A stretch of 64,000 bases of DNA from Deltaproteobacteria bacterium (GCA_009692615.1 SHYW01000010.1:2670-66669); one strand, 5' to 3'; shown: positions 2,061 through 36,152, counted from the stretch's first letter. Translations and numbers: made by a program. The notes: generated by a model from the sequence alone, not told the origin.

Positions 2061-3305
2061 TCACTCCAACGGCAACGTTAGCAACTTCTGCTCCGGATGA
2101 ATCAGATGTTCGTGGCCGGTCTGCGTCACAACGCAGGTGTATTCCACTTGCACCGTGCCCCAGCCGGCTTCGTGGTTCGAGGCTTCGAGATTCATCGTCA
2201 TGCCGGGCTCGACCGGAATGTTGGTGGTGTTGGGGAGAAACGGATCGTCGACTTCTTCAGCAGGACCGAGCAGGAACGGAAACTCGCGCGCTTCCAAACC
2301 TATCGTGTGGCCGAGAAAGAAGTTCGAATAATTCGGCAAGCCGTTGGCGCGCACGCCGGCGATCATAGTTTCATAAAGTTCTTGCGGACGAACGCCGGGC
2401 TTGAGCGTTTCCACCGACTTCAACACGCCCGCTTGGATCGCGTCGTAGCGTTTGCGATGTTCCGCCGTCGGCGCGGCGCCGACCGAGCCAGATTTGCACA
2501 CATCGGCATGATAGCCGTTGATCGAGCAGCCCATGTCGACACGAAAGATATCGCCCTTCTGCAAAACGTTATCTTTGATCGCCGGAAAGTTGCCGCCGCG
2601 GGTCACCGCCATGTGCATCCAATAAACTTGCCCGCCAGCCTTGGCGATCTCACCTTTGTAAATGCTCGCCAGCTCATTCTCGGTCACGCGCGGACGGCAG
2701 GCGCGCAGCATTGAATTGATCGCCTCTTCGTTGACCTCGGCGGCCTCGCGCAGCCGCTGAATTTCATCCGGCGTCTTGATCATGCGCACGTAGCGAAAAA
2801 ACATCGACGCGGGCAAGAGCGTCGCCTGGGGCAAATTGGCGCGAATCTTTTCGTACTGCGTGATCGGAATCGCGAAGTGATCCATGCCGATGCGCCCGTT
2901 GGCCATGCCTTTATCTTGAATCAATTGCGCCAACGCTTTTTCCGGCGTCAGTCCTTTCGAATCGCTCCCGGCCAACTTCACCGTGCGCTGCTCGACGGCG
3001 GTGAGCTTATTCATATCGGCGACATGCGGATTGCGTGGCCGGCCGTAGATATATTTTTCTTCGATGCGCACGTCTTCCAGCGACGCGTAACCGACGTCGC
3101 CGCCGGGAATCAGCAGCGCCGGCTTGTGCGCCGGATCGCGCGGATAAACGACGTAGACTTGCGAGCCGCCGTAGCGATAACCGTTTTGGCTCCACGACGC
3201 ATGACCGCTCAAGTAAAAAATATTCTCCGGCGTCGCCGCGACCACGCCGGCGAGATCATGTTTGTCCATCAACGCCAGCAACCGTTCTTTGTTATAAAGC
3301 ATCAA
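2061..3305 (-). CDS. M24-family metallopeptidase (Xaa-Pro aminopeptidase / creatinase-like)
   Basis: 414 aa. A creatinase/prolidase-type N-domain is followed by pita-bread fold motifs (DMGCSINGYHADVCKSG, GHTIGLEAREFP, MNLEAS). Confidence 0.85.
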   Translation of the reverse strand: MMLYNKERLLALMDKHDLAGVVAATPENIFYLSGHASWSQNGYRYGGSQVYVVYPRDPAHKPALLIPGGDVGYASLEDVRIEEKYIYGRPRNPHVADMNKLTAVEQRTVKLAGSDSKGLTPEKALAQLIQDKGMANGRIGMDHFAIPITQYEKIRANLPQATLLPASMFFRYVRMIKTPDEIQRLREAAEVNEEAINSMLRACRPRVTENELASIYKGEIAKAGGQVYWMHMAVTRGGNFPAIKDNVLQKGDIFRVDMGCSINGYHADVCKSGSVGAAPTAEHRKRYDAIQAGVLKSVETLKPGVRPQELYETMIAGVRANGLPNYSNFFLGHTIGLEAREFPFLLGPAEEVDDPFLPNTTNIPVEPGMTMNLEASNHEAGWGTVQVEYTCVVTQTGHEHLIHPEQKLLTLPLE

Positions 3306-3354
3306 AATCTCCTAAATAATTTTGAATTTGAAATTTGGAATCTTGAATTCTCCC

Positions 3355-5031
3355 TCACACTCCGCCTTCCGACCGCCACGGCCGTGGCTCCAACGGCTTC
3401 ACGGCAACTTCCAACACGGATGGGCCTTGATGCGCTAGCGCGCGAGCTAACGCCGGTTTCAGTTCATCCGGTTTCTCGACGCGCTCGCCGTAAGCGCCGA
3501 GCGCCCGCGCCACGCCGGCGTAGTCGCCGCGCAACGAGATGCCGATCTCATGGCCTTTGAAGCGCTCGTGCAAAGTTTCCCGGCTGGCGCCTAAACTTTC
3601 GTTGTTGAGAATCACGGTCAACGTGCGGATGTCATTGCGCGCCGCGGTTTCGATCTCCATGCCGGTCATGCCAAACGATCCGTCGCCGGTAAAATTCACC
3701 ACGGTCTTGTCGGGATTGCCAAGCTTAGCGCCCATCGCCGCCGGCGTCGACCAGCCCATGGCGCTGGTGCCGCCGAAGCCGATGAAGCCCAACGGATTGA
3801 GTGCTTCATAATGATGCGAAACGTAGGCCCGGGTCACGCCGGCGTCGTGCAGCAAGATCGTTTTCTTGGCATCGAGCTGATGGGTAATGTCCCAACAGGC
3901 GCGATACGGATTGATCGGGACTTCGTCGGATGTGAGCCGCGGATTCCAGGAATCGAGCCACTTGTTTTTGAGATCTTGAATTTCCGCCGCGACATCCGCC
4001 GCCATGCCCTTGCGATAAGCCGCGAGCTTTTCTTTTCCCTGTAACAGCATCGCGCGCAGAAAAAGTTGAATGTCGGAAAGAATCACCAGATCGGCGGGAT
4101 AATTTTTGTGCAGCTCCGCGGCGTCGATGTCGACTTGAACCAGTTTCGCGTGCGCCGGCTTGGGCAGCCAACCTGAAGTCGCGTGCTGGCGAAAACTGCA
4201 TCCAAGCGCAATCACCAAATCCGCTTCCTCGGCAAACTTGCGCGACTGCCCAGTGCTGTAAACCGCGCGCGGAAAACCACCGAGGCCTAAACACAATGGA
4301 TGATCCTCCGGCATCGCGCCCTTCGCCGGCAGCGTCGCCATCACCGGCAGCGCGTAGGATTCGGCGAGTTTAACCAGCGCCTCGGTCGCGCCCGACCAGA
4401 GCGCGCCGCGGCCGACGTAGATCAGCAGCTTTTTCGACTGCTGCAAAAGTTCGATCAACTTTTCGACATCGTCAGGATCGGGACCGAAACGCACGCGCCG
4501 CGTTTTGAAATAGGGCGGCATCTCCGCCTGCGCCATGCTGATGTCCTGCGGCATATCGATGATCACCGGCCCCGGCCGTCCCGAGCGCGCCAGCGTAAAC
4601 GCGCGGCGAAACACTTCAGGGATGCGCTCCGCAGACGGCACGCTGAAGGTCCACTTGGCCATCGATTGAAACACGTCGAGATAAGGCACTTCTTGCAGCA
4701 TGCCCTTGGCCAACTACTTGCGCGAGCTGTGGCCGAAGATGACCACGAGAGGAACGCAGTCGGTAAACGCATTGACGATGGCGGTGAAGGCATTGCAGCG
4801 CCCCGGCCCTTTGGTCACCATCGCCACGCCGACTTCACCGGTGCTGCGCGCGTAGCCGTCGGCGATGTACACCGTCGCTTGCTCGTGACGCGTGAGGATC
4901 AAAGGGATCGTGCCGTTTTCATGCAAGGCATCGAAGATCGGTAAAATATCGTCGCCGGGAAACGTCGAGACGAATTTCACGCCTTCGGTTTGAAGAATAT
5001 CGACAAGAGCATCCGCGCCACGCATAGTCAC
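3355..5031 (-). pseudogene. Thiamine-pyrophosphate enzyme of the acetolactate-synthase superfamily, interrupted by an in-frame TAG
   Basis: Track ORFs 4714..5031 (TPP N-domain, ..ATVYIADGYARSTGEVGVAMVTKGPGRCNAFTAIVNAFTDCVPLVV) and 3355..4713 (middle and PP-binding domains, ..FGGTSAMGWSTPAAMGAKLG..VVNFTGDGSFGM) are in the same frame. Only TAG at 4716-4714 separates them (..IFGHSSRK*LAKGMLQEVPY..). Confidence 0.8.
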
Positions 5032-5037
5032 TTCTTT

Positions 5038-6081
5038 CTATTTGGTCGCAAGCTTTTTGAAGAAGCCTTCCTCCTCAAGCTTGCGGACAAATCGGCCATC
5101 GATAAAATCGTAGGGGTTCTTGTTCTTCAACGCCGGCTGCCGCTCGGCGAGCACATCCAAGACGAACTTGATGCCCTCGGGCGACGGCGTCAGATACTGA
5201 TTTAAAAATTTGCCCAGTGTTTCCTGCGCCTGTGCCACCGCCGGATCGTCCTTGGGCACGCGCATGTATTTCGCCACTACCGGCAAAGTCAGATCGGGCC
5301 GCGTCTTGTAGAGATAAATCGCTTCCGAAGTCGCGCACAACACGTTGAGAATCACTTCGGCATTGGCGTCGATGAATTTGCGCGTCGCGACCACGGAGAT
5401 CACCGGAAACGGAAAATCCAAACCGGCAAGATCGAAAACTTCGCGATAACCCGCTTTCGCCGCGGCGAGCGAAGACGGCGGCGTCAACACACCGGCTTGA
5501 AATTTTCCCTGCAACAGTCCGGCGAGCACTTCGGGAGAACCGCCGGCCGGCAACACGCCGACATCGCGATTGGCCGCCCAATTGAAATGGCGCAAGAACG
5601 CCAACGCAGCGAAATAGCTGTTGCCTCCCACCGCGCCGGCGGCGAGCGTCTTACCTTTGAGATCGCCGATCTGCTTGATCTGCGGACTGGCGTGAATCGC
5701 GAAGGTCAGCCGCGTGAAAACCGTGCCGAGCAGCGCGATCTCCGCGCCACTGGCCGCGGCCGCTACCGCCGCCGCGCCGCCGACTTGTGAAACGTCGATG
5801 GAGCCGCCGAGCATCGCTTGAATCGGCCGCGACCCGCCGACGTAGATCAACTCGGTTTCGTAGCCGCCATATTTCTCAAACAGTTTTAACTCGTGAGCAA
5901 TCCAGAACGGCGGGTTCGCGTAAGCAAAAGCGCTAAACGCCAGGCGCAGCTTCTTCGCTTGAGCCGCGTGCAATGGCGTAGAGGCGAACACGCAAACCGC
6001 GAGCATTGCCAAAAACAGTCGAGCAAAATTTGGCATCATCGGCATCATCATTGCGGCGAACAGACGAAGACATATTGGCAA
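5038..6081 (-). CDS. NMT1/SsuA-like ABC substrate-binding protein (NitT/TauT family), secreted
   Basis: 347 aa with a signal peptide (..AMLAVCVFASTPLHAAQA) and a periplasmic-binding-protein pattern shared with the array at 12.5-22.8 kb. The track start is TTG; the real start is probably one of the ATGs near 6051. Confidence 0.75.
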   Translation of the reverse strand: MPICLRLFAAMMMPMMPNFARLFLAMLAVCVFASTPLHAAQAKKLRLAFSAFAYANPPFWIAHELKLFEKYGGYETELIYVGGSRPIQAMLGGSIDVSQVGGAAAVAAAASGAEIALLGTVFTRLTFAIHASPQIKQIGDLKGKTLAAGAVGGNSYFAALAFLRHFNWAANRDVGVLPAGGSPEVLAGLLQGKFQAGVLTPPSSLAAAKAGYREVFDLAGLDFPFPVISVVATRKFIDANAEVILNVLCATSEAIYLYKTRPDLTLPVVAKYMRVPKDDPAVAQAQETLGKFLNQYLTPSPEGIKFVLDVLAERQPALKNKNPYDFIDGRFVRKLEEEGFFKKLATK

Positions 6082-12327: not shown

Positions 12328-12349
12328 ATTGCATGCTCCAAGGAAGGTT

Positions 12350-12371: not shown

Positions 12372-12547
12372 TAAGTCAAGAATAGATTTGGCTCGCCCTT
12401 TCCGACCTAACGAACCAACGCAACCACCAAAATCCCAGCGGGCGCGGGCGCGCCTCTTTTTAATTTGCTTGGCTCATTCGATTAAAGCTATATTTGGAAC
12501 AACTAATCCCAGACAAGTCGTTCACAGCAGTTTTGGAGGCCACTCTA

Positions 12548-13582
12548 ATGAAATGTTTAGGCCGATCGGTCTTATCCGTCATATTCGTCTTGATCGTTAT
12601 CGCTATATCTCAAACCAATCTCCACGCTGCACCGGGCGAGGTGATCATTTCCCACGCCAGCATGAGCACAACCTCGATCCCGCTTTGGGTCACCCAGCGG
12701 CGAAACTTTTTCGGCAAATACGGCGTCAATTCGAAAGTCGTCTGGGTGCGCGGCAATCCCGCGCAAATCGCTACGCTGGTTTCCGGCGACACGCAGATCG
12801 CCTACGGCGGCGCACCCACCGCCATCGCCGCAACCCTCGGCGGCCGCGACATGAAGATCATCGCCAGCTTGAGCAGCCGCGAGAGCCTCGACATCGTCGC
12901 CCGGCCCAACATCAAGAGCGCCAAAGAGTTGGCCGGCAAACGCTTCGGCGTACAAAGCGTCGGCGGCGGCGTGTGGAAAACCGCGCCCGTATGGTTGGAA
13001 CACCTCGGCATGGACGAGCGGCGCGACAATATTCAGATGCTCGTCATCGGCGACGTCACCGTGCTCGCCCAATCGCTGGAATCCGGCCTCATCGACGCCA
13101 CGGTGGTGCCGCCGTTTTTAAGCCGCCGCCTCGGCGCTAAAGGCTTCACCGTCCTCGGCCGCTGCGAAGAAACCCGGCTTTCATCGGTCGGCATGACGGT
13201 CTTAGTCGAGCGCCCCTATTTGCAGCAAAACGCCGAGACCTTGCAAAACGTCATGATGGCGCTCATCGAAGGCATGCTCTACACCGGCCACCCGAGAAAC
13301 AAAGCCGTCGTCATGGAAACCCTGACCAAACAATTCCGCATGACCGATCCCGCCATCGCCGAAGGCGCCTACCAAGACGTGTCCACGCTCGTGCGTTTAG
13401 AAGAAGCGCGCAAACCCGATGTCTCGTTAGAAGGCATGCGCATCCTGCAACGATTGCTGGCGCCGGGGAATCCGAAAATCGGCAGCTTAAAAATAGAAAC
13501 CCTGATCGACTCCAGCATCGTCAAGAAAATTGAGGACAGCGGGTTTTTTGAGAGGATGACTGCGGAATACGGAGGGAAGTAG
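12548..13582 (+). CDS. NMT1/SsuA-like substrate-binding protein, array member 1
   Basis: Track ORF 12494..13582. ATG 12548 is preceded by GGAGG and followed by a signal peptide (MKCLGRSVLSVIFVLIVIAISQTNLHAAPG). It shares family blocks with the other SBPs (RPNIKSAKELAGKRFGV, WLEHLGMDERRD). Confidence 0.8.
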   Translation: MKCLGRSVLSVIFVLIVIAISQTNLHAAPGEVIISHASMSTTSIPLWVTQRRNFFGKYGVNSKVVWVRGNPAQIATLVSGDTQIAYGGAPTAIAATLGGRDMKIIASLSSRESLDIVARPNIKSAKELAGKRFGVQSVGGGVWKTAPVWLEHLGMDERRDNIQMLVIGDVTVLAQSLESGLIDATVVPPFLSRRLGAKGFTVLGRCEETRLSSVGMTVLVERPYLQQNAETLQNVMMALIEGMLYTGHPRNKAVVMETLTKQFRMTDPAIAEGAYQDVSTLVRLEEARKPDVSLEGMRILQRLLAPGNPKIGSLKIETLIDSSIVKKIEDSGFFERMTAEYGGK

Positions 13583-13672
13583 CTTTGAATTTCTCGCCTA
13601 GAAGCCAACTCCGCGCGTCCGGCAAGCGGTATCGGAAATCTTGTTCGAGGTCCTTAGTCCCCCGACATTACG

Positions 13673-14065
13673 TCACGCGCCCGAATCCGAAAACGGCTCG
13701 GCGACAACTTGAAAATCATCTTCGTAGACAATGAACCCCGGCCGATCGGTTGTTACCGTTTCCACGACGACACCATGAAGGCGCATGAGTTCAACAACTT
13801 CTCTAGCCAGACGAATGTGATCTACCGCTGTGTCTTTGAACCACGCTAGTCCACGATGGTTCTTGTGAGAGTTATTTCTTTTCCGGGAGACGCGGGCTGG
13901 CACGGGTAGATTTTTATTGAACCATTTGAAAATCTCTTCGAGTCGCTCGTCCTCATAATCCGGCAATACCCCGCGCTTCTGAATGACCTCGGCACCGCGC
14001 AGAAATCCGTAGCGATACCCAGACTCCTCGCTTCGGTTAGGAATTACGAATCGGAGATAACGCAT
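13673..14065 (-). CDS. Hypothetical protein (no family recognised)
   Basis: A 130-aa ORF on the opposite strand inside the SBP array, in a lower-GC patch. It has no signal peptide or TM segment. Confidence 0.45.
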   Translation of the reverse strand: MRYLRFVIPNRSEESGYRYGFLRGAEVIQKRGVLPDYEDERLEEIFKWFNKNLPVPARVSRKRNNSHKNHRGLAWFKDTAVDHIRLAREVVELMRLHGVVVETVTTDRPGFIVYEDDFQVVAEPFSDSGA

Positions 14066-14205
14066 CGTAGTCCTGTTTACGACTCAAGCTCACCGACACA
14101 CGCTTCGTTAGCTTTGCGGTATTTACAGTAATTCATCGATGTTTATGCAAGATTCGAACGCTAGTCATTGACGCATTTTCATTGTCGTTGTCAATTTTGA
14201 TCACC

Positions 14206-14234
14206 TTGACAGCAGCCAAGCATCATATCATAAA
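14206..14234 (+). promoter_or_regulatory. Possible sigma70-type promoter for the hydrolase gene
   Basis: TTGACA (14206-14211), a 17-nt spacer, then CATAAA (14229-14234), ending 14 nt before ATG 14249. No clear SD follows, so this is weak. Confidence 0.25.
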
Positions 14235-14248
14235 CGTTAAAATTATTT

Positions 14249-15085
14249 ATGAACTACCAAACCCATATCCACAGTTTCAAAACCGCCGACAATGAGCGGC
14301 TCCACGGCGCGCTGTTGACGCCGCCGGATCAGCAATCCGATCTGGCGCTAATCTTAGTCCACGGCGTGGCGATGAATTTTTATTTGCCGCCGCTGTTTAG
14401 TTTCGGTCAAGAACTTGCAGCGCGCGGCCATCACAGTTTCGTCATCAACACGCGCGGCCATGATTGGATCGCGCGGGCGGGGAATTTGCAGAAGTTCGGC
14501 GGCTCGGCCTATGAGAATCTCGAAGACTGCGTTGCGGATCTCGACGCGGCCATCGACTTTCTCAAAGCGCGCGGCTACCGGCGCTTCATTCTCATCGGCC
14601 ACAGCCTGGGTGCCATCAAGTCGATTATTTATCAGGGCACGCAACAGCGCGCTGACATCGCGAGCATCGTTGCCTGCTCGGCGCCGAAGCAGTTCTACTC
14701 GGAGCGCGTCGAACGCTATCCTGAGTTTCGCGAGTTAATCGCCAACGCCGAGCAGATGGTAGCGGAAGGAAAGAGCGAGGAACTGATGATGGTGCCGGTG
14801 GGCGTCAATCCAGGGATCTTCACCGCGCGCACGCACTTGAACAAGTATGCCAAAGACGATCGCAACGACTGCCGGCCCCACGCGAAAAACGTCGGTTGCC
14901 CAGTGCTTGCCATCGCCGGCGGCGCCGAGCCGCCGTTCTTTCACGAGTACGCCCAAGAAATCGTCGCCGCCGCCGGCGGCCGCTCGAAGTATCAAAGGGT
15001 CGACGGCGCCAACCACTTCTACAACCGCCACACGCCGCAGATGGTCGAAGTCATCGCCCAGTGGCTAAAACAATTTCAGGATTAG
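14249..15085 (+). CDS. Alpha/beta-fold hydrolase
   Basis: 278 aa. It has LILVHGVAMNF (oxyanion region) and the nucleophile elbow GHSLGA. Confidence 0.8.
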   Translation: MNYQTHIHSFKTADNERLHGALLTPPDQQSDLALILVHGVAMNFYLPPLFSFGQELAARGHHSFVINTRGHDWIARAGNLQKFGGSAYENLEDCVADLDAAIDFLKARGYRRFILIGHSLGAIKSIIYQGTQQRADIASIVACSAPKQFYSERVERYPEFRELIANAEQMVAEGKSEELMMVPVGVNPGIFTARTHLNKYAKDDRNDCRPHAKNVGCPVLAIAGGAEPPFFHEYAQEIVAAAGGRSKYQRVDGANHFYNRHTPQMVEVIAQWLKQFQD

Positions 15086-15100
15086 AAAATTTAATCACGT

Positions 15101-15137
15101 AGGGTCGCGATTCATCGCGCCCTCTTCCGCTTTTTTC
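15101..15137 (+). terminator. Probable intrinsic terminator after the hydrolase gene
   Basis: AGGGTCGCGAttcaTCGCGCCCT is a hairpin (9 bp with one bulge), followed by CTTCCGCTTTTTT. Confidence 0.5.
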
Positions 15138-15194
15138 CTATGTGAACTTTGCGCTCTTTGTGGTTAGATCGATCCGAAAGGAACTTTCACGACA

Positions 15195-16217
15195 ATGAAA
15201 CGGTATCACCGCATCCGATTCGCCGCGTTTCTCTTCGGAATCCTAAATTCTTTGCCGTCTCTCTCCGTCCTAGCCGCGGCGGCGCCGACCAAAATCGCCG
15301 TCGGCTACGCCACCATCAGCAGCGCGTCGACGACGCTTTGGGTTGCTCAGGACGAAAAGTTTTTCACCAAGTACGGCATCGATGCCGATTTAGTTTTCAT
15401 GCCGGGAGCACCGACGCTGATCGCGGCGATCAATTCCGGCGCGTTGGCAATCGGTTACACCGGCGGCACGGCGATCCTCGGCGCGGTGGCCGGCGGCACG
15501 GACTTGAAAATCATCGCCGCCAGCCAGGGGCGCGTGCTGCACGATCTGGTGGTGCGCCACGACATCAAGAAAGCCGAAGACCTACGCGGCAAGCGCGTCG
15601 GCGTCACCAGCATCGGCGGTTCCGGCTGGATGGCGGCGATGTTGGCCTTCGAACAGTTGGGGATCAATCCCGACAAAGATAAGTTAATCGTCTCCGCCTT
15701 CGGCGATATGCGCATCATCGCCAAGGCGTTCGAAGCCGGCAATCTCGACGGCGCGCTGGTCACCGGCAATCTAATCTCGCAATTCAAACGCGCCGGCTAC
15801 AACGTCTTGAGCGAACTCGAAAAGGTGCAAATGTTAGGCTCGGCAGTGGTCGTGAAGCAGAGCATGATGACGACGCAAACCGAGCTGCTGCGCAATGTCA
15901 TCCGCGCCCTAACCGAAGCCCATGCCTTTGTATTAAGCCCGAGCAAACATGGCGCCGTGCTGCGCGTGATCAGCAAACGGCTCAACATCACCGACCCCAC
16001 GGCCGCCGAAGACGGCCTACAGGATCTGCTCAAACGTATCGACAAGAAACTGTTTCCCTCCCTCGACGGCCTGCGCAACATTCAACGCCTCCTGCAAACG
16101 CGCAATTCGAAGATCGGCCAGATCAAACTCCAAGAGGTCATCGACGACTCCTTGGTCAGAGAACTGGAAAAGAGCGGCTTCAACGACCGCGTGCTCGGCG
16201 ACTACGGCGTAAAATAA
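15195..16217 (+). CDS. NMT1/SsuA-like substrate-binding protein, array member 2
   Basis: 340 aa with signal peptide ..SLPSLSVLAAAAP and family blocks (DIKKAEDLRGKRVGVTSIGGSGWM). Confidence 0.85.
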   Translation: MKRYHRIRFAAFLFGILNSLPSLSVLAAAAPTKIAVGYATISSASTTLWVAQDEKFFTKYGIDADLVFMPGAPTLIAAINSGALAIGYTGGTAILGAVAGGTDLKIIAASQGRVLHDLVVRHDIKKAEDLRGKRVGVTSIGGSGWMAAMLAFEQLGINPDKDKLIVSAFGDMRIIAKAFEAGNLDGALVTGNLISQFKRAGYNVLSELEKVQMLGSAVVVKQSMMTTQTELLRNVIRALTEAHAFVLSPSKHGAVLRVISKRLNITDPTAAEDGLQDLLKRIDKKLFPSLDGLRNIQRLLQTRNSKIGQIKLQEVIDDSLVRELEKSGFNDRVLGDYGVK

Positions 16218-16240
16218 TTTCCGACTGGAGATGAATTCCC

Positions 16241-17260
16241 ATGCTCGTGCTCAGAACCTTCGTCATCATTGCATTGCTATTCATACACTCGCGTCCACCC
16301 GCCATGGCAGCCGCGGCTCTGACCAAGGTAGTCATCGGCTTCGCTGCGATGAACGCGCGCGTGGCGCCCCTGTGGATCACCGAGGAACAAGGCATCTTGG
16401 CGAAATATGGGCTTCAATCTCAGCAAGTTTATCTGCGCGGCGCGCCGACTTTGGTAGCCGGCATGGCGTCGGGCGATATTCATTTCGGCCGCAGCGGCGG
16501 CAGCGCGACGCTTGCCGCGGTGGGCGCCGGTCATGATTTTAAAGTCATCGCCAGCTTCTCGAGCCGCAACAGCTACGACCTGATGGCACGGCCCAATATC
16601 AAACGCGCCGAAGAGCTGCGCGGCAAAAAAATCGCCGTCACCAGCATCGGCGGCAGCTCCTGGATGGGCGTGATGTTGTGGCTCGAACATTTCGGCCTCG
16701 ATGCCCAGCGCGACAACATTCAGCTGTTAGTCGTCGGCGATCAGTTGGTGCAGATGCAAGCGGTGGAGACCGGCATCGCCGATGCCGCCGGCTTGGACGG
16801 CGTGTTCAGCAAGCAGCTGCGCGCCAAGGGCTTCAACATGCTCGGCGAATATTCCGATTTGAAAGCCGCCATCGTCGGCCAAGCGATGGTGGTGCCCCAA
16901 GCGTTTCTCAACCGCCATGCCGACATCGCCGAGAACTACTTGAAGTCCGAGGTCGAAGCATTGGCGTTCGCCGTGGCGCCGAAAAACAAACCGGCGGTGT
17001 TGAAGCTGCTGATGAAACGGCTCAAGACCGAAGCCGCCGGCGCCGAGGAAGGCTACCAGGATCTTCTGCGCGGCGTCGACCGCAAACCGTTTCCGTCCCT
17101 TGAAGGCATGCGCAACATTCAGAGAATTTTAAGACCGCGCAATCCCAAACTCGCCGATATCAAAGTCGAAAACGTCGTCGACGATAGAATCATGCGCAAG
17201 CTCGACGAGTCCGGCTTCATCGACCGCGCCTACGCCGCCCAGGGCGCGAGCTTGAAATGA
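16241..17260 (+). CDS. NMT1/SsuA-like substrate-binding protein, array member 3
   Basis: 339 aa with a signal peptide ending PPAMAAAA. It is a close paralog of members 4-8 (GGSATLAAVGAGHDFKV, LWLEHFGLDAQRD, KLDESGFIDRAYAAQG). Confidence 0.9.
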   Translation: MLVLRTFVIIALLFIHSRPPAMAAAALTKVVIGFAAMNARVAPLWITEEQGILAKYGLQSQQVYLRGAPTLVAGMASGDIHFGRSGGSATLAAVGAGHDFKVIASFSSRNSYDLMARPNIKRAEELRGKKIAVTSIGGSSWMGVMLWLEHFGLDAQRDNIQLLVVGDQLVQMQAVETGIADAAGLDGVFSKQLRAKGFNMLGEYSDLKAAIVGQAMVVPQAFLNRHADIAENYLKSEVEALAFAVAPKNKPAVLKLLMKRLKTEAAGAEEGYQDLLRGVDRKPFPSLEGMRNIQRILRPRNPKLADIKVENVVDDRIMRKLDESGFIDRAYAAQGASLK

Positions 17261-17266
17261 AGACTA

Positions 17267-17380
17267 TTCACCACAGAGCACACAGAGATCACAGAGCAAA
17301 AGATTCACAAGTCGGGCGGGTCACGACCCGCCCTCCGAATCCTCCGAACCTTTCGTGTGTTTCGTGTTTTTCGTGGTTAA
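17267..17380. repeat. CACGAA-periodic hairpin repeat, copy 2 (variant left arm plus central GC hairpin)
   Basis: The left arm is TTCACCACAGAGCACACAGAGATCACAGAG. The centre is GGGCGGGTcacgACCCGCCC (8-bp stem, 17314-17333). The right arm is TTTCGTGTGTTTCGTGTTTTTCGTGG. Confidence 0.6.
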
Positions 17381-17411
17381 ATCCGAACTTCTTTTCGACG
17401 GAGGACAGGCC

Positions 17412-18431
17412 ATGAATTATCGACACCAACATTGCGCCGTGATCTTCCTCATCCTATCTCTCTGCCAATTCCCTAGTGCCTTCGCCGCCGCGCCGTCGAA
17501 ACTCGTCATCGGCTACGCCGCCATGAGCGCGCGGGTGATGCCGCTGTGGATCGCCGAGGAGCAAGGTATCTTCGCCAAGTACGGCATCGACTCGCAGCAG
17601 ATTTTCATCCGCGGCGCGCCAACTCTGGTCGCCGGACTGGCGTCGGGCGATATTCAAATTGCCAGCACCGGCGGGAGCGCAACGCTCGCCGCCATCGCCG
17701 CCGGCCATGATTTGAAAATGCTCGCGGCCTTTTCCAGTCGTAACACCTACGATCTGGTCACCCGGCCGTCGATCAAGCGAGCCGAAGACCTGCGCGGCAA
17801 ACACTTTGGCGTCACCAGCATCGGCGGCACCGTGTGGATGGGGATCATGCTCTGGCTCGAGCACTTCGGCCTCGACGACCAGCGCGACAAAATCCAGATC
17901 CAAGTCATCGGCGACCAGACCGTGCAAATGCAAGCTTTGCAAAACGGCATCATCGACGCCGCGGTGCTCGACGGCGTCTTCAGCCGGCGCTTAAAGCAAC
18001 AAGGCTTCAACATCACCGGCGAATTTGCCGATCTTAAGCAGCAATACACCAGCCAGGCCATCGTCGTGCAGGGCAAGTACGTGCAGCAACGGCCCGATAT
18101 GCTGGAGAATCTCTTGAAGGCCCAAGTCGAAGCCATCGCCTTCTCGCTGGCGCCGAAAAATAAACCGACGGTGATTAAAACATTCATGCGCCGGCTGCGC
18201 ATCGACGCCGCCACCGCCGAGGAAGGCTACCTCGACCTGCACCGCGCCGTCGACCGCAAGCCCTACGCCTCCGCCGAAGGCATGCGCAACGTGCAGCGGC
18301 TCATGGCGCTGCGTAATCCCAAGATCGGCGAGGTCAAAATCGACAACGTGATCGACAACCGCATCGTCAAGCGGTTGGACGACAGCGGATTTATTGATAA
18401 AGCCTATGCAGCCCAGGGGACCAAACCGTAA
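17412..18431 (+). CDS. NMT1/SsuA-like substrate-binding protein, array member 4
   Basis: Track ORF 17355..18431. The first 19 codons run through the repeat element. ATG 17412 follows GGAGGA and gives signal peptide MNYRHQHCAVIFLILSLCQFPSAFAAAP. Confidence 0.9.
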   Translation: MNYRHQHCAVIFLILSLCQFPSAFAAAPSKLVIGYAAMSARVMPLWIAEEQGIFAKYGIDSQQIFIRGAPTLVAGLASGDIQIASTGGSATLAAIAAGHDLKMLAAFSSRNTYDLVTRPSIKRAEDLRGKHFGVTSIGGTVWMGIMLWLEHFGLDDQRDKIQIQVIGDQTVQMQALQNGIIDAAVLDGVFSRRLKQQGFNITGEFADLKQQYTSQAIVVQGKYVQQRPDMLENLLKAQVEAIAFSLAPKNKPTVIKTFMRRLRIDAATAEEGYLDLHRAVDRKPYASAEGMRNVQRLMALRNPKIGEVKIDNVIDNRIVKRLDDSGFIDKAYAAQGTKP

Positions 18432-18485
18432 CCGCCGGCGGTTAGAACGGAACCCGCGCTGGAATTAGAAAATGTTGGAGGCAAG

Positions 18486-19520
18486 GTGAAACTCGATCGG
18501 TTGTGCGCCAAATTATTCGCCGTTGCGTTAATCATATCGGCTTCGTTTAGTCTTGCGGTGTATTCCTTCGCCGCCGCGCCGGGGAAAATCATCCTCGGAT
18601 ACGCCGCGCCCGGCGCTCGGGCACTGCCCTTTTGGATCGCCCAGGAACTCGGCCTATTCAACAAATACGGCCTCGATGTCGAGCCGGTATTCATTCGCGG
18701 CGCGCCGCTGTTAGTCTCGGGCCTGGCCTCGGGCGACATCCATATCGGCAGCACCGGCGGCAGCGCCACCTTGGCGGCGGTCGCCGCCGGCCAGGATTTG
18801 AAAATCATCGCCACCTTCGGCAGCCGCAACACTTTCGATCTGATCTCCCAGCCTAACATCAAGCGGCCCGAAGACTTGCGCGGCAAGCGCATCGGCCTCA
18901 CCAGCATCGGCGGCACCACCTGGATGGCGCTCCTGCTCTGGCTCGAACACTTCGGCCTCGATGTCCAGCGCGATAAAATGCAATTGCAGCCCACCGGCGA
19001 GCAGGCGCTGACCGTCCAAGCCCTCGACGCCGGCGTGGTCAACGCGGCGATCCTCGACGGCATCTATTCGAGCCGCGTCAAGCCCAAGGGCTTCACCGTC
19101 TTGGGCGAATATTCCGATCTAAAATACCAGTTCATCAGCCAGGCGCTAGTGGTGCAGAAGAGCCTGCTGCAACAGCGCGGCGACATGTTGGAGAATCTGT
19201 TGAAAGCGGAGATCGAAGGGCTGGCTTACGTATTGGCGCCGAAGAATAAAGCCGCGGTCATCAAAACTCTCATGCGCCGAATGAAAACCGCCGCCGGCCC
19301 CGCCGAGGAAGGCTACCTCGATCTGCTGCGCGGCATGGACCGCAAACCCTTCCCCACCGTCGAGAGCCTGGTCCATGTGCAGCGTTTGATGAAAGCCCAG
19401 AACCCCAAGATCGGCGCGGTCAATCTCGAAGAGCTGAACGACGCGCGTTTGGTCAAAAAGCTCGACGACAGCGGCTTCATCGACAAGGCCTACGCGGCAC
19501 AGGGGATCAGTCTGAAATAA
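18486..19520 (+). CDS. NMT1/SsuA-like substrate-binding protein, array member 5
   Basis: 344 aa. The GTG start follows GGAGG. It has signal peptide ..SFSLAVYSFAAAP and the paralog blocks. Confidence 0.9.
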   Translation: MKLDRLCAKLFAVALIISASFSLAVYSFAAAPGKIILGYAAPGARALPFWIAQELGLFNKYGLDVEPVFIRGAPLLVSGLASGDIHIGSTGGSATLAAVAAGQDLKIIATFGSRNTFDLISQPNIKRPEDLRGKRIGLTSIGGTTWMALLLWLEHFGLDVQRDKMQLQPTGEQALTVQALDAGVVNAAILDGIYSSRVKPKGFTVLGEYSDLKYQFISQALVVQKSLLQQRGDMLENLLKAEIEGLAYVLAPKNKAAVIKTLMRRMKTAAGPAEEGYLDLLRGMDRKPFPTVESLVHVQRLMKAQNPKIGAVNLEELNDARLVKKLDDSGFIDKAYAAQGISLK

Positions 19521-19558
19521 TCGAGCAAGGCTCTGGAAGGATTACTTCGGAGAACCCC

Positions 19559-20605
19559 ATGTTACACGGCGCGAGCATAACCATCAGGCGGCATCCGACA
19601 AATTTCGTCATCAGCCTTATTATTCTAATTGCACTGCAGCACCCGCTCGCGTCCAACGTTTTCGCGGCCACCAAGCTGATCGTCGGCTACGCCACCCACA
19701 ACGCCCGCATCGCGCCGGTCTGGGTCGCCCAGGAACAAGGCTTCTTCAACAAGTATGACATCGACACCGAGCAAGTGTACGTGCGCGGTGCTCCGATCCT
19801 GGTCGCTGGCATGACCTCGGGCGAGATCCAGATCGGCCGCAGCGGCGGCAGCGCGACCTTATCGGCCATCGCGGCCGGCCATGATTTCAAAATCATCGCC
19901 AACTTTTCTTCACGCAACCCCTACGACTTGGTCGCCCGCCCCAACATCAAACGGCCGGAGGACTTGCGCGGCAAAAAAATGGCCGTCACCAGCATCGGCG
20001 GCACCACTTGGATGGGCGCGCTACTGTGGCTGGAACAGTTGGGCCTCGATCCACAGCGCGATCAAATTCATTTGCAGGCGATCGGCGATCAAAACACCCA
20101 AACCCAATCGGTGGAAAGCGGCATCGTCGACGCCGCCGTGCTCGACGGCGCCTATAGCCGGCGGCTCAAGCAAAAGGGCTTCACGATTCTTGGCGAATAC
20201 GCCAATCTGACCAAGCCCGTGCTCGGCCAAGCCGTCGCCGTGCCGCGGCAGTATCTGCAACAACGTGGCGACCTGGTGGAAAATTACTTGAAAGGCGAGA
20301 TCGAAGCCCTGGCGTTTTGTTTCGCGCCGAGAAATAAATCCGCGATGATCAAGCTGCTCATGCGGCGCCTAAAAACCGATGCGGCTGGCGCGGAGGAAGG
20401 CTACGCGGATTTGATCCGCGGCATCGACCGGCGACCGTTTCCTTCCGTCGAAGGCATGCGCAATATTCAGCGCTTGATGAAACTCCGCAGCCCAAAGGTC
20501 GGCGAACTGCGCGCCGAAGATGTCATCGACGGCCGTATCATGCAAAAACTCGACGACAGCGGCTTCATCGACCGGGTTTACGCGGCACAGGGGTTGAAAC
20601 CATAA
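19559..20605 (+). CDS. NMT1/SsuA-like substrate-binding protein, array member 6
   Basis: 348 aa with signal peptide ..LQHPLASNVFAA and the paralog blocks. Confidence 0.9.
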   Translation: MLHGASITIRRHPTNFVISLIILIALQHPLASNVFAATKLIVGYATHNARIAPVWVAQEQGFFNKYDIDTEQVYVRGAPILVAGMTSGEIQIGRSGGSATLSAIAAGHDFKIIANFSSRNPYDLVARPNIKRPEDLRGKKMAVTSIGGTTWMGALLWLEQLGLDPQRDQIHLQAIGDQNTQTQSVESGIVDAAVLDGAYSRRLKQKGFTILGEYANLTKPVLGQAVAVPRQYLQQRGDLVENYLKGEIEALAFCFAPRNKSAMIKLLMRRLKTDAAGAEEGYADLIRGIDRRPFPSVEGMRNIQRLMKLRSPKVGELRAEDVIDGRIMQKLDDSGFIDRVYAAQGLKP

Positions 20606-20680
20606 TCATTCGTTCAAGGTTCAAAAGTTCTAAGTCGGACACATTGAGAAGTCTTCAGTATTTTAAGGAGAGCCGGGTTG

Positions 20681-21727
20681 ATGCCTATTGAGCATAATCT
20701 ACGAATCACAGCCAATATTCTCGGAACTGCAATATTTGGATTTATACTCCTGCTTGTTTCAACGATCCTTCATGCCGCAACCGCCCCAACGCGGCTGGTC
20801 ATCGGTTATGCCTCGACGACGCCGCGCTTAATGCCGCTGTGGATGGCGCGCGATCAAGGCTTCTTCGCCAAGTATGGCATTGAGTCCGAGCCGGTGCTGT
20901 TGCGCAGCGGCGCGACGCTGGTGACCGGCATGGCGTCGGGCGACATCCAGATTGGCCGCACCGCCGGCGCTGCGGTCTTGTCCGCCGTGGCTGCCGGCCA
21001 TGACATCAAGATGTTGGCGACTTTTTCCAGCCGCAATTCCTACGACGTCGTCACCCGGCCGAACATTAAACGAGCCGAAGAGCTGCGCGGCAAAAAGCTC
21101 GCCATCAACAGCGTCGGCGGCGGCACCTGGATCGGCGCCATGTTGTGGATCGAACACTTTGGCCTCGACGTGCAGCGCGATCAGATCCTGCTCCAATCCA
21201 TCGGCGATCAGGGCACGCAATCTCAGGCTTTGGAGTCCGGCACCGTCGACTGCGTCTTCGTCGACAGCGTTTACAGTAAGCTGCTGAAACAGAAAGGCAT
21301 GAACATCATCGCCGAATCCAACGAGCTGAAACAGCCGTTGGTCAGTCAATCGACGATCATGCCGAATAACTTTCTTCGTCAATATCCCGATGTCGCCGAA
21401 AACTATATCAAAGGCGAGATCGAAGGCATCGCGTTTGCCACCGCGCCCAAGAACAAACCGGCGGTCATCAAAATGCTCATGCGCCGGCTGCGGGTCGACG
21501 CCGTCACCGCCGAAGAAGGCTATAATGATATGCTGCGCGGCGTCGACAGAAAACCGTTCGCGTCGATGGAAGGCATGCGCAATCTCCATCGATTGTTGAG
21601 ACCGCGAAATCCCAAGATCAGCGAGGTGAAAGTCGAAGACGTGGTCGACAACCGGATCATGCGCAAACTGGATGAGTCCGGCTTTATCGATAAAGTCTTC
21701 GCGCTGCACGGAGCGAGTTTTAAATAA
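20681..21727 (+). CDS. NMT1/SsuA-like substrate-binding protein, array member 7
   Basis: The track ORF starts at TTG 20678. ATG 20681 follows AAGGAG. It has signal peptide ..LLLVSTILHAATAP and the paralog blocks. Confidence 0.9.
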   Translation: MPIEHNLRITANILGTAIFGFILLLVSTILHAATAPTRLVIGYASTTPRLMPLWMARDQGFFAKYGIESEPVLLRSGATLVTGMASGDIQIGRTAGAAVLSAVAAGHDIKMLATFSSRNSYDVVTRPNIKRAEELRGKKLAINSVGGGTWIGAMLWIEHFGLDVQRDQILLQSIGDQGTQSQALESGTVDCVFVDSVYSKLLKQKGMNIIAESNELKQPLVSQSTIMPNNFLRQYPDVAENYIKGEIEGIAFATAPKNKPAVIKMLMRRLRVDAVTAEEGYNDMLRGVDRKPFASMEGMRNLHRLLRPRNPKISEVKVEDVVDNRIMRKLDESGFIDKVFALHGASFK

Positions 21728-21809
21728 CTATTAGCGATCAACGGTCATTTATTAATTTTGGGCTTGCGCTGGTAACCGATAACTGAATACTGACGGCTCA
21801 CGGAGGTCG

Positions 21810-22847
21810 ATGTCCATGAAGCGTTCAAAACAACTCGCTCTAGTCGTTGTCACTTCTATTTTCTTGCTCACGTCCGGCGTTTATGACGCGCGCGCCGCCG
21901 CGGCGCCGGCCAAATATGTCGTCGGCTACGCCACCTTCACGGCGCGCATCGTGCCGCTCTGGCTCGCCCAGGAACAAGGCTTCTTCACCAAGTACGGTAT
22001 CGAGGTCGAACCGGTGTTTATCCGCGGCGCGCCGACATTGGTGGCCGGATTAGCCGCCGGCAGCATGCACATCGGCCGCACCGGCGGCAGCGCCATGTTG
22101 GCCGCGGTGGCCGCCGGCCACGATTTCAAAGTCGTCGCCGCTTTCAACACACGCAACACCTACGATCTAGTCGTCCGTCCCAACATCAAGCGCGCCGAAG
22201 ATTTGCGCGGCAAGACCTTTGGCATCACCAGTATCGGCGGCACCAGCTGGATGGGCGTCATCCTCTGGTTGGAGCATCTGGGTTTGGATGAAAAGCGCGA
22301 CAACATTCGTCTCCAAGTGATCGGCGACCAGAGCGTCCAGGTGCAGTGCATGGAAAGCGGTCTGTGCGACGCCATCGCTGTCGACGGCGTCTACACCAAG
22401 CAAGCCAAAGCCCGCGGCATGAATGTGCTGGGCGAATACACCCAACTCAAATCTCTATTGATCGGTCAATCCATGGTGGTGCCGAGTGCGATGCTGCAAC
22501 AGCGCCCGGACGCCGCCGAAGCGTATTTGAAGGGTGAGATTGAAGCTCTGGTCTTTTCCTTGGCGCCGAGAAACAAACCGGTGGTGCTCAAGACTTTGTC
22601 GAAGTGGCTCAAGGTCGACGCCGCCGGCGCCGAGGACGCCTACCTGGATCTCATCCACGGCGTCGATCGAAAACCCTTCGCCGTCCTCGAAGGATTACGC
22701 AACGCCCAACGCCTGTTGAGAACGCGAAACCCAAAAGTCGGCGAAGTCAAAGCCGAAGACGTTATCGACAACCGCTTGATGAAAAAACTCGACGACAGCG
22801 GTTTCATCGACAAGCTCTACGCAAGCTACGGCGTCAGCCTGAAATAG
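21810..22847 (+). CDS. NMT1/SsuA-like substrate-binding protein, array member 8
   Basis: 345 aa with signal peptide ..LLTSGVYDARAAAAP and the paralog blocks. An alternative ATG lies at 21816. Confidence 0.9.
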   Translation: MSMKRSKQLALVVVTSIFLLTSGVYDARAAAAPAKYVVGYATFTARIVPLWLAQEQGFFTKYGIEVEPVFIRGAPTLVAGLAAGSMHIGRTGGSAMLAAVAAGHDFKVVAAFNTRNTYDLVVRPNIKRAEDLRGKTFGITSIGGTSWMGVILWLEHLGLDEKRDNIRLQVIGDQSVQVQCMESGLCDAIAVDGVYTKQAKARGMNVLGEYTQLKSLLIGQSMVVPSAMLQQRPDAAEAYLKGEIEALVFSLAPRNKPVVLKTLSKWLKVDAAGAEDAYLDLIHGVDRKPFAVLEGLRNAQRLLRTRNPKVGEVKAEDVIDNRLMKKLDDSGFIDKLYASYGVSLK

Positions 22848-25140: not shown

Positions 25141-25150
25141 GAGACGCGAT

Positions 25151-32136: not shown

Positions 32137-33237
32137 ATGCTACGAAGAACGCGCCCTCGCTGGTGGTACTTCGTACCGGTTTGCGCGGTTTTCCTGCTCT
32201 CCTCGTTTTGGCTCAGCGTTCAGGGGGCGGAAATGGCCAGTCGGCTTCCCGAGCGAATAAACAATCTCGCCGCACCGGAGCGAGAAAACTTGTTGGTGGA
32301 GGGGGCAAAAAAAGAAGGCGCGGTCATGTGGTACGCGAACTGGGCGGGCGACGAGGTCGAGAAGATCTCGCAGGGATTCAAGAAAAAATATCCACTCATC
32401 AACGTTCTCGTCTTTCGCGGTGTCAGCGGTAAAGTTGAAGACAAAATTACCACCGAGTACCGGGCGGGGAAGCACCTTGCCGATGTAGTTCTCGCCGGCA
32501 CGTCGAAGATGGCGCTTTTTCGCGAAGGTGGAATCATCGGTCGCTATCTGTCGCCCCAAGTGCGCGCTCTGCAGCCCAAACTTTACGATAGAGACGGTTG
32601 GTGGGTGAGCTTGGCCATGAGTCCGACGGTGATCGGGGCGAACACCAATCTCGTTGCTCCTCAGGAAACTCCCAAAGAGTGGCGCGACCTGCTCGACCCT
32701 AAGTGGAAAGGGAAAATAGGACTCGATACGGAGCCTGACATCATGATTTTGGGGATGGTTCAGGCTTGGGGCGATGAAAAGACTCTGGAATTTATCCGCG
32801 CGCTGGCGCGAAACCAACCGCAGATCCGCAGCGGCCACACGCTCCTCGCCCAGCTGGTGGCTGCCGGCGAGCTTCCAGTTGGAGCGGAGTTGTACGGCTA
32901 CCGGGTGGCCGAGCTGATTGCAAAAAAGGCGCCCTTGCGGATGTCATATCCTAACCCGGCCATTTTTAGTCTGTCACCGATCATGACGGCCGCGTTGCCG
33001 CCTCACCCGCATGCCGCGGCGCTCTTTTATGATTTCCTCCTCTCGGAAGAGGGCCAGACTATAATTGGAACGGACATCGGCAGAACCCCGGTGCGCAAGG
33101 GTATTCCCGCGCGCAATCCCGAATTCGTCAAAGTGCAGGAATCCGACGCGTTCCTCCCTTTGGACCCGTTGATGGCCGGCAAAAAGAGCAACGAAGCGAA
33201 ACGCTGGATCAAAGAAATCCTTCTTGTTCGCAAGTGA
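32137..33237 (+). CDS. ABC transporter substrate-binding protein, Fe3+/AfuA-like family 1
   Basis: 366 aa with a signal peptide. KKEGAVMWYAN..GFKKKYPLINVLVFRG resembles the SBP at 23095. Confidence 0.8.
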   Translation: MLRRTRPRWWYFVPVCAVFLLSSFWLSVQGAEMASRLPERINNLAAPERENLLVEGAKKEGAVMWYANWAGDEVEKISQGFKKKYPLINVLVFRGVSGKVEDKITTEYRAGKHLADVVLAGTSKMALFREGGIIGRYLSPQVRALQPKLYDRDGWWVSLAMSPTVIGANTNLVAPQETPKEWRDLLDPKWKGKIGLDTEPDIMILGMVQAWGDEKTLEFIRALARNQPQIRSGHTLLAQLVAAGELPVGAELYGYRVAELIAKKAPLRMSYPNPAIFSLSPIMTAALPPHPHAAALFYDFLLSEEGQTIIGTDIGRTPVRKGIPARNPEFVKVQESDAFLPLDPLMAGKKSNEAKRWIKEILLVRK

Positions 33238-33333
33238 TTTTGTAACCGTGGCCGATTCGATCTGACGGCCGCAATGACCGCCTGACCGGATTCCATCAGC
33301 GCGCACACGCGCGATGATTCGCCTCAAGCCATA

Positions 33334-35040: not shown

Positions 35041-35042
35041 AG

Positions 35043-36152
35043 ATGATGATCCGCGCTCACAATTTGAAGAAAGCGTTTGCCACCCAGGAGGAAAAAGTTT
35101 CCGCTTTAAATGGGATCGGCTTTGACGTCGAGTCCGGCAGCTTCTTTACTCTCTTGGGGCCTTCGGGATGCGGCAAGACCACCACCCTTCGCTGTATCGC
35201 GGGACTGGAGAGGCCCGATGAAGGAGAGATCGCGATCGGCGACAGGACCGTCTTCTCCTCTTCGCAGCGCATTTTTATTCCCGGAAATAAGCGCGATATC
35301 GGAATGGTTTTCCAGTCCTATGCGATCTGGCCGCACATGACCGTATACGGGAACGTTGCCTATCCTTTGCGGGCCAGGGGGCGGCCGCGAGCCGAGATTG
35401 AAGAAAAAGTTCATGCCGCGCTCAAGCTGGTGGGATTAGAGGATTTCCACGACCGGCTGGCGCCGCGGCTTTCCGGTGGGCAGCAGCAACGCGTCGCGCT
35501 CGCGCGCGCGTTGGTTGCGGAGCCGAGCGTCCTTCTCTTGGATGAGCCACTCAGCAACCTCGACGCCAAGCTGCGTAACCAGATGCGCTGGGAACTCAAG
35601 GACCTGCAGCGGCGGCTCGGAACCACGACGATTTACGTGACCCACGATCAAGTCGAAGCGCTGGCGATTTCGGATCGCATCGCGCTGATGAATAAAGGTC
35701 AAATCGCGCAGATCGGGACTCCGCGGGAGATCTATGCCAACCCGGTGAACGAGTTTGCCGCTGACTTTATCGGCGCCGCGAATATCATCAGTGGGGAGCT
35801 GAGCGAGGAGATAGACCATCGTAGCTTTGCGCGCATCACGACATCCTTTGGGGTGCTGATGGCGACGCAAAAGGGAGAGCTGAATAAGGCGTCGAAGGAT
35901 GTGCTGATCGCTTTCAGACCCGAGGATGTGTCACTAGTGAGCCAAGCGACTTGCGCCGAGGGTCAGCATAATGTTTTCCAAGGAATTGTCCAGGGATCGA
36001 CCTACCTTGGGGACTCAAGCGAATTTAGGATAACGGTTGGAGAACAGAGAATCCAGGCCAAAACAGATAGTACCACCCATTTCCCCGTCGGCGCCGTCGT
36101 CTATCTCAGTATCGCGCCGGCAGCGTGTCTAGTTATTCGCCGCGGCGATTGA
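35043..36152 (+). CDS. ABC transporter ATP-binding protein (FbpC/PotA-like)
   Basis: It has Walker A GPSGCGKTT, the signature LSGGQQQRVALARAL and Walker B LLLDEPLSNLD, plus a C-terminal regulatory/TOBE-like region. Confidence 0.95.
   Translation: MMIRAHNLKKAFATQEEKVSALNGIGFDVESGSFFTLLGPSGCGKTTTLRCIAGLERPDEGEIAIGDRTVFSSSQRIFIPGNKRDIGMVFQSYAIWPHMTVYGNVAYPLRARGRPRAEIEEKVHAALKLVGLEDFHDRLAPRLSGGQQQRVALARALVAEPSVLLLDEPLSNLDAKLRNQMRWELKDLQRRLGTTTIYVTHDQVEALAISDRIALMNKGQIAQIGTPREIYANPVNEFAADFIGAANIISGELSEEIDHRSFARITTSFGVLMATQKGELNKASKDVLIAFRPEDVSLVSQATCAEGQHNVFQGIVQGSTYLGDSSEFRITVGEQRIQAKTDSTTHFPVGAVVYLSIAPAACLVIRRGD

Follow-up and report, generated by a model that had tools for sequence, protein, structure and literature searches.

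The 64-kb stretch of DNA analysed here at its full length (the window) comes from an uncultured Binatia bacterium (phylum Binatota) of soil and freshwater and carries 14 genes for substrate-binding proteins (SBPs) of the NMT1/SsuA superfamily, 13 of them complete and one partial. Eight of these genes, copies B to I, make up the array at 12548-22847 that is our subject. An initial annotation had described a head-to-tail array of eight; the count stands, but the array is not uninterrupted. Copy B is followed by a 130-amino acid (aa) open reading frame (ORF) on the minus strand, which has no family match, and by an alpha/beta-hydrolase gene, after which copies C to I lie contiguously with 23-151 bp between them.

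12548..13582, plus strand: copy B, NMT1-family SBP (Pfam NMT1/NMT1_2); first gene past the divergent Rrf2 promoter region
14249..15085, plus strand: alpha/beta-hydrolase (Pfam Abhydrolase_6/1), cytoplasmic, without signal peptide; 109 bp before copy C
15195..16217, plus strand: copy C, NMT1-family SBP
16241..17260, plus strand: copy D, NMT1-family SBP
17412..18431, plus strand: copy E, NMT1-family SBP
18486..19520, plus strand: copy F, NMT1-family SBP; GTG start
19559..20605, plus strand: copy G, NMT1-family SBP; rarest orthogroup
20681..21727, plus strand: copy H, NMT1-family SBP
21810..22847, plus strand: copy I, NMT1-family SBP; used for the structure model

The six remaining copies are scattered over the window, three of them in a second cluster whose gene order is identical in one relative (L051).

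5038..6042, minus strand: copy A, distant NMT1 SBP; heads a cluster with a thiamine pyrophosphate (TPP)-dependent enzyme and an M24 peptidase
36426..37409, plus strand: copy J, distant NMT1 SBP; 273 bp downstream of an unrelated ATP-binding cassette (ABC) ATPase
53849-54808, plus strand: copy K, NMT1 SBP; second cluster
54805-55773, plus strand: copy L, NMT1 SBP; second cluster
55799-56797, plus strand: SMP-30/gluconolactonase-like protein with signal peptide; second cluster, between L and M
56804-57796, plus strand: copy M, NMT1 SBP; second cluster
63242..64000, minus strand: copy N, partial NMT1 SBP, continuing past the window edge

Copies D to I, which had been called close paralogs, are indeed related and share the conserved sequence blocks quoted for them, but their closeness is limited, with pairwise identities of 47-62%. 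With this group copies B and C share 35-42% identity (B 35-41%, C 35-42%), and A, J, K, L, M and N have just 19-27% identity to any other copy.

Family, export signal and predicted fold

All 14 ORFs listed as family members match Pfam NMT1 (PF09084) at 33-85 bits, above the gathering score of 20.5, so the profile hidden Markov model bears out both the membership and the NMT1/SsuA assignment; most copies additionally match NMT1_2 and Phosphonate-bd. With the start codons first proposed, including those at 12548, 17412, 20681 and 54805, the 13 complete proteins are 319-348 aa long. By a heuristic test that combines hydropathy with an A-x-A-like pattern, every one of the 13 has a hydrophobic N-terminal segment (12-aa hydropathy 1.9-3.5) and 12 have an A-x-A-like site, the pattern search giving no site in copy H. 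This agrees with the signal peptides claimed for all complete copies, and the paralogs are predicted to be exported to the periplasm. The same signals would argue against a cytoplasmic enzyme role of the THI5/DszB type.

An AlphaFold2 model of copy I, the one copy modelled, was built from a 56-sequence alignment (predicted local distance difference score 92, predicted TM-score 0.84) and has the class II two-lobe periplasmic-binding-protein fold of the TauA/SsuA type. The top 40 Foldseek matches are exclusively NMT1-family SBPs or THI5; 3qsl, TauA, SsuA, ThiY and PqqT are matched at E = 1e-14 to 1e-18, and further matches in the PDB include thiamine- and pyrimidine-binding SBPs (4nmy, 3ix1), THI5, CmpA and NrtA. 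At the sequence level, TauA, 3qsl and CmpA alone are detected, all weakly. The best structural match, 3qsl (CAE31940, an exported protein of Bordetella bronchiseptica; E = 2.6e-18, TM-score 0.74/0.78), is 18% identical and itself lacks a characterised ligand or partner, so no function can be carried over from it.

The best-studied comparison is with TauA and SsuA of the Escherichia coli TauABC and SsuABC alkanesulfonate importers (PDB 6ssy, 2x26), which share the Pfam family, the class II two-lobe fold (Foldseek E = 1e-15 to 1e-17, TM-score about 0.7-0.8 on the target), the periplasmic location and the glycine-rich loops at helix N-termini; in alignment with TauA and SsuA the loops RGAPT, GGS and TSIGG are kept across the family. 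The array copies differ from TauA and SsuA in being only 18-21% identical to them, in having Ala in place of Gln30 of TauA, and in not being encoded with a permease, an ATPase or a desulfonating oxygenase. No array copy reaches the cut-off of any curated ligand-specific model in NCBIfam. The best-scoring of these, SsuA_fam, gives 49-83 bits against a cut-off of 163.5, and the taurine models (taurine_ABC_bnd) give at most 51 bits against 304.

Conservation of the locus and selection on its genes

A scan of one genome per species yielded 42 related loci, nearly all labelled Binatia, uncultured delta proteobacterium or Thermodesulfobacteriota, the exceptions being single loci labelled Gammaproteobacteria or Verrucomicrobiia. 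Homologs of copy I reach 92% identity, and the sole taxon name among the matches listed is 'Candidatus Binatus sp.' The window DNA itself was found as short Logan contigs in two freshwater metagenome runs (X1 and X2) at a depth of ~10. The subfamily is small, with 169 clusters (50% identity) at E <= 1e-30 among 1.8 billion representatives.

More than 30 loci have the same gene order: Rrf2, NirA-type reductase and sirohaem genes, then copy B, a hydrolase, 1-7 SBPs, a hydrolase, Amidohydro_2 and an S9 peptidase. That order in so many related loci shows that the array is not a matter of chance. On the side divergent from the Rrf2 operon, relatives carry a B-type SBP, at times a TctC-like SBP, a hydrolase, the SBPs of D-I type and a second hydrolase; the alpha/beta-hydrolase gene upstream is kept before the array in nearly all related loci, and at least 13 have the Rrf2/NirA-type reductase/sirohaem operon in divergent orientation to the array. 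The copy number of D-I SBPs ranges from 1 to 7 across relatives, and gains and losses of copies are lineage-specific. In one clade with a single copy (L020, L021, L023, L028), that SBP is 63-64% identical to both E and I, and the clade looks like the state before the expansion. One-to-one orthologs of the D-I paralogs are 85-93% identical with their order preserved in related genomes, and one relative (L005) carries the full set of eight.

Orthologs of copy B are 63-84% identical in 12 loci (dN/dS, the ratio of nonsynonymous to synonymous rates, 0.14), and the ortholog of copy C in L005 is 88% identical (0.12). For the remaining copies the identities reach 90% for D (0.11), 89% for E (0.08), 93% for F, which is duplicated in some relatives (0.10), 90% for H (0.09) and 93% for I (0.10); copy G has a single ortholog found, in L005, at 88% (0.10). 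All eight array copies thus fall between 0.08 and 0.14 against their orthologs, and synonymous divergence between the paralogs is close to saturation. Together these values indicate that the array is old and that every copy is under purifying selection. The idea that the array is a functionless relic left behind after loss of its transporter draws on a missing transporter slot, a nonsense codon in the TPP gene and a frameshift in the nirA-like gene, all three described below. It is contradicted by the low dN/dS and by the array being intact in eight of eight genes and conserved in several species, and we consider it extremely unlikely.

Dense orphan NMT1 clusters are not restricted to the array locus. 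A 121-kb contig of another organism (L053, ENA contig_543) has about eight NMT1 SBP genes within 21 kb, interleaved with glyoxalase-fold, cupin, UbiD, creatininase, TenA and major facilitator superfamily genes and without ABC components.

Transporter genes in the window and in relatives

The initial annotation reported neither a cognate permease nor a cognate ATPase in the window, and both family scans and a tblastn search with the Binatia NitT/TauT permease and that transporter's own SBP were negative there. The only BPD_transp_1 permease and ABC ATPase, at 33334-36152, lie behind an SBP of SBP_bac_6 type and so belong, as had been noted, with a different SBP family.

32137..36152, plus strand: sole ABC importer in the window; SBP_bac_6 SBP (32137), fused two-domain permease (33334-35040) and ATPase with TOBE domain

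A matching permease just outside the window had been allowed for. At the right edge, where orthologs of copy N are 90% identical, the syntenic relatives L051 and L052 continue with an NMT1 gene, a short-chain dehydrogenase/reductase, a cyclase, Amidohydro_2 and an SBP_bac_11 gene; they show no permease, and a permease just past copy N is rejected on this synteny. Copies A and N were also rejected as the NitT/TauT transporter's own SBP (no BLASTP match at E <= 1e-3), no window copy exceeding ~27% identity to that protein. Over 708 kb of sampled loci we counted 171 NMT1 ORFs and four NitT/TauT permeases, in a sample biased to SBP loci and with two of the four permease loci fetched through the permease itself. 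Permease-like contigs in runs X1 and X2 are less than 90% identical and 3-5 times higher in depth, and are therefore not assignable to this genome.

It is possible that the SBPs serve another kind of transporter, either a component of the tripartite tricarboxylate transporter (TTT) or TAXI-type tripartite ATP-independent periplasmic (TAXI-TRAP) families or the ThiP/FbpB-like fused permease at 33334-35040. Several copies weakly match the TAXI-TRAP model TIGR02122, in relatives the locus also contains interspersed genes for TctC-like SBPs, and copy J sits close behind an unrelated ABC ATPase. However, the TAXI scores are 16-30 against an 84-bit cut-off, TctA/TctB or DctQM genes were not found in the window, the 33334-36152 system has its SBP_bac_6 partner, and the repeat-bracketed block that holds it is missing at that place in relatives. 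We regard this alternative as very unlikely. The block in question is 8.9 kb long and contains cupin and UbiD genes, the sole ABC importer and copy J. It is bracketed by a 197-nt direct repeat (29014-29210 and 37939-38135, 83% identical) that copies the 3' end of the S9 peptidase gene, and it looks inserted or rearranged. A divergent signal-peptide protein at 51599-52657 (plus strand) matches TctC, a TTT SBP, at sub-threshold level only; ~35% identical homologs are interleaved in the array locus of six relatives (L004, L008, L012, L020, L021 and L037), and this type of protein is a second orphan SBP type.

The genes on the left flank of the array, all on the minus strand, are those beside which relatives carry a NitT/TauT transporter.

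11893-12327, minus strand: Rrf2 regulator; operon divergent from the array
9504-11794, minus strand: NirA/SirA-type sirohaem reductase gene, frameshifted; divergent operon
7946-8755 and 7074-7718, minus strand: sirohaem synthesis genes; divergent operon
6206-7057, minus strand: hemD, end of the divergent operon; followed by the NitT/TauT transporter in relatives
2061..5034, minus strand: TPP-dependent enzyme (3355-5034) and M24 peptidase genes; precede permease, ATPase and SBP in relatives
925-1552, minus strand: PIN/MazE-type toxin-antitoxin pair in the transporter slot of relatives; pckG nearby

In the single-copy clade (L049, L020, L054) the operon reads Rrf2, NIR_SIR, hemD, permease, ATPase and SBP, and runs divergently from genes for a TctC-like protein, a hydrolase and a D-I-type SBP. 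In two other relatives (L055, L056), an ortholog of copy A (72% identical in L056), the TPP enzyme (~85-86%) and the M24 peptidase (87%) are followed by permease, ATPase and SBP, with the permease 96% identical to that of L020. The window shares this three-gene cluster, with genes for a MazE-type antitoxin and a fragment of a PIN toxin next in line, and then pckG. Two metagenomic contigs (L065, L084) have an SBP of the D-I family (47-49% identical) directly upstream of the permease, ATPase and SBP genes on the same strand, and these SBPs keep the framework residues R46, W51, R72, D119, S141, G143-G144, W147 and D192. Taken together, the transporter found after hemD, the transporter found after the A-TPP-M24 cluster and the D-I SBP upstream of it in two contigs indicate that the family is not intrinsically orphan. 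The operon of Binatia and other soil bacteria (L020, L049, L054-L133) resembles the array in superfamily and, in related Binatia, in locus, with a D-I-family SBP as first gene in some contigs; it differs in being absent from the window and in having an SBP of its own that is ~22-26% identical to the array copies.

The permease is conserved at 79% identity or more over 80 loci, and the list of its matches holds no contig from array-bearing genomes. A permease 81% identical to it and a copy-N homolog are annotated in metagenome-assembled genomes of 'Candidatus Udaeobacter' and 'Candidatus Acidoferra...' (proteins P0212, P0349), and one array locus (L025) carries the Verrucomicrobiia label mentioned above. 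These odd-taxon labels come from mis-binning or, alternatively, from horizontal transfer between soil phyla.

Several further features of the window were recorded. The region 12328-12547 has two conserved sigma-70-like motifs in 13 loci, one like TTGACA-N17-TAGGAT facing the Rrf2 gene and one like TTGC(G/C)-N17-18-TATATT directed toward copy B; no obvious shared operator was seen in this region across the 13 loci. Scans for promoters and terminators scored no better, or hardly better, than chance, no Rfam family matched the window, and a search for RNA runs came back empty. Two more toxin-antitoxin-like pairs are present: an Xre/RES pair (26314-27263, plus strand), which separates the Amidohydro_2 gene from the S9 peptidase gene next to which it stands in relatives, and a nucleotidyltransferase/HEPN pair at 38235-38961 (plus strand). 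Genes for topoisomerase VI subunits B and A (59688-62820, plus strand), here in a bacterial genome, adjoin copy N in L051 and L052 as well. NCBIfam 'Sao' matches, to a system tied to selenoproteins and organometallic biochemistry, were set aside as uninformative here.

Ligands and possible roles of the array

We lean towards the view that the paralogs are alternative receptors that widen the ligand range of a shared NitT/TauT importer encoded elsewhere. The array would be a tandem expansion, specific to a Binatia clade, of one NMT1/SsuA SBP subfamily of NitT/TauT ABC type. Each paralog would bind its own ligand out of a group of related small organic anions and dock on a shared permease and ATPase encoded away from the array, and the imported compounds would then be processed by the co-transcribed cytoplasmic hydrolase and neighbouring catabolic enzymes. 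We infer here that the transporter is kept elsewhere in the genome, that all paralogs use it and that their ligands differ. With one transporter and many receptors, the array looks like an extreme case of an ordinary pattern. The initial annotation had also proposed a transporter encoded elsewhere, and the operon at the locus in relatives and the linkage to a D-I SBP in metagenomic contigs support this part indirectly. It had also asked whether variable positions line the binding cleft. Specificity-type positions group at 42-48, 111-113, 145-146, 186-190 and 217-222, and family positions 43 and 145 (Ser32 and Thr132 of TauA) differ between orthogroups and are constant within each; yet when loops predicted to face the cleft were fixed in advance and a rough test applied, enrichment in them is weak and not significant (odds ratio 1.7, p = 0.24).

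That result is one of several that weigh against a shared importer. Besides the tblastn search, which gave no match in the window, the 10 kb around the multi-copy arrays of relatives are free of ABC components, NitT/TauT permease and ATPase included. The permease-ATPase-SBP unit nearly always comes with its own dedicated SBP, and only five of the 80 metagenomic loci anchored on the permease have a D-I-type SBP nearby, which makes the association an occasional one. Gln30 of TauA hydrogen-bonds the sulfonate group (ligand contacts from PMC6906117), and in all of B-I it aligns with an invariant Ala, in a mapping that is approximate at ~20% identity. The flanking operons are decaying as well. In the TPP gene an in-frame TAG (4714-4716) stands at the place of a Gln in the L056 ortholog, the remainder being collinear, and the nirA-like gene falls into two overlapping frames that meet at ~11036-11054, whereas its orthologs are single ORFs of 764-772 aa. 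Neither the TAG nor the frameshift varies in contigs of runs X1 and X2, and with no indel variants there the frameshift seems real. With the transporter slot of relatives filled by the toxin-antitoxin pair and the neighbouring genes decayed, this lineage may have lost its transporter rather than moved it.

If the transporter was lost from this locus, whose flanks are decaying while the array is kept under strong purifying selection, the SBPs may work without any importer, as periplasmic partners that capture ligands for exported enzymes or as sensors. We think this quite improbable, but if true, an SBP family would have been repurposed away from transport. More broadly, a role outside transport could be that of periplasmic ligand sensors, or of substrate capture and hand-over for the Tat-exported amidohydrolase and the SMP-30-like lactonase. 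The genes downstream of the array bear on this.

24337-25140, plus strand: esterase-like alpha/beta-hydrolase (Est1-like), kept downstream of the array in many relatives
25148-26287, plus strand: Tat-signal lipoprotein, ACMSD/LigW-family Amidohydro_2, kept downstream of the array in many relatives

The Amidohydro_2 protein has a twin-arginine signal and lipobox (SRRDFLK...LLASC), kept in orthologs from at least eight loci, which would imply a periplasmic lipoprotein decarboxylase or hydrolase. Periplasmic enzyme genes are thus interleaved with SBP genes, no transporter is near any multi-copy array, the window shows a deletion where the transporter would sit, and the same alternative has been weighed for orphan SBPs of the TTT family (PMC5994714). 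On the other hand, the conserved neighbourhood offers no membrane partner such as a histidine kinase or chemoreceptor, its most conserved neighbour is a cytoplasmic hydrolase, which implies uptake, and family members stand inside NitT/TauT operons elsewhere. A role outside transport, which the initial annotation also offered, is in our judgement unlikely.

Two ligand classes are candidates. The catabolic context (the cytoplasmic hydrolase, the Est1-like esterase, the ACMSD-like lipoprotein, and UbiD and cupin genes) suggests aromatic or aliphatic carboxylates and esters, and breakdown of plant aromatics and of phthalate has been inferred for Binatia (bioRxiv 10.1101/2022.03.11.484050). Organosulfur ligands are suggested, instead, by the conserved Rrf2/sulfite-reductase-like/sirohaem operon that runs divergently. 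The closest solved relative of its reductase is Mycobacterium tuberculosis NirA, which we take to be a sulfite reductase. In a more specific version of the shared-importer reading, then, the paralogs would be receptors for sulfonates or sulfate esters, co-regulated with sulfite reduction by Rrf2. SsuA_fam as the top curated model and TauA and SsuA among the best fold matches are in line with this, as are the recurrence of the divergent operon and the transporter of L049, which sits within that operon. But SsuA_fam scores remain far below the cut-off, Ala stands in place of the Gln that binds sulfonate, the scores of plant nitrite reductases come close to that of NirA, and the reductase gene is frameshifted in the window. 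The window has no ssuD, tauD or sulfatase gene, and no desulfonating enzyme (luciferase-like monooxygenase or TauD-family) was among the window ORFs scanned. The TPP enzyme was considered as a sulfoacetaldehyde acetyltransferase and rejected (best model PRK06154; Xsc 186 bits against a cut-off of 620). Dedicated scavenging of organosulfur compounds we hold to be somewhat unlikely.

Orphan SBP expansions have been described for the Bug/TctC proteins of the TTT family in Bordetella, Cupriavidus and Rhodoplanes, the last with a nine-gene array of paralogs less than 50% identical, and many receptors sharing a transporter is the favoured explanation (PMC5994714). As in those cases, SBP genes apparently outnumber membrane components here, in loci sampled with a bias to SBPs, tandem paralogs are near or below 50% identity, the genes lie among catabolic and regulatory ones, and the same two explanations compete. 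Here, however, the proteins are NMT1 rather than TctC, an ABC ATPase would take the place of a secondary TTT transporter, and the phylum is Binatota. Unlike the Bug/TctC expansions, this one is old rather than recent, as its paralogs have conserved orthologs across species. The phenomenon of orphan arrays is thus already known for another SBP family. In the searchable literature we came across neither this locus nor any orphan array of NMT1-family proteins, a search for orphan NitT/TauT SBPs brought up nothing of relevance, and the Binatota genome paper and its supplements make no mention of the array SBPs or of NitT/TauT genes.

That many receptors share a transporter would not in itself surprise a transport specialist. 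Binatia, however, are abundant, uncultured bacteria of soil and sediment whose substrate range is known from gene inventories alone. If one importer does serve many receptors, counts of transporter genes would underestimate the range of compounds taken up, and the paralogs would offer a panel for finding the organic anions that are scavenged, such as lignin-derived acids or organosulfur compounds. The pattern of many receptors with few membrane components, documented for TTT, would then extend to the ATP-driven NitT/TauT importers.

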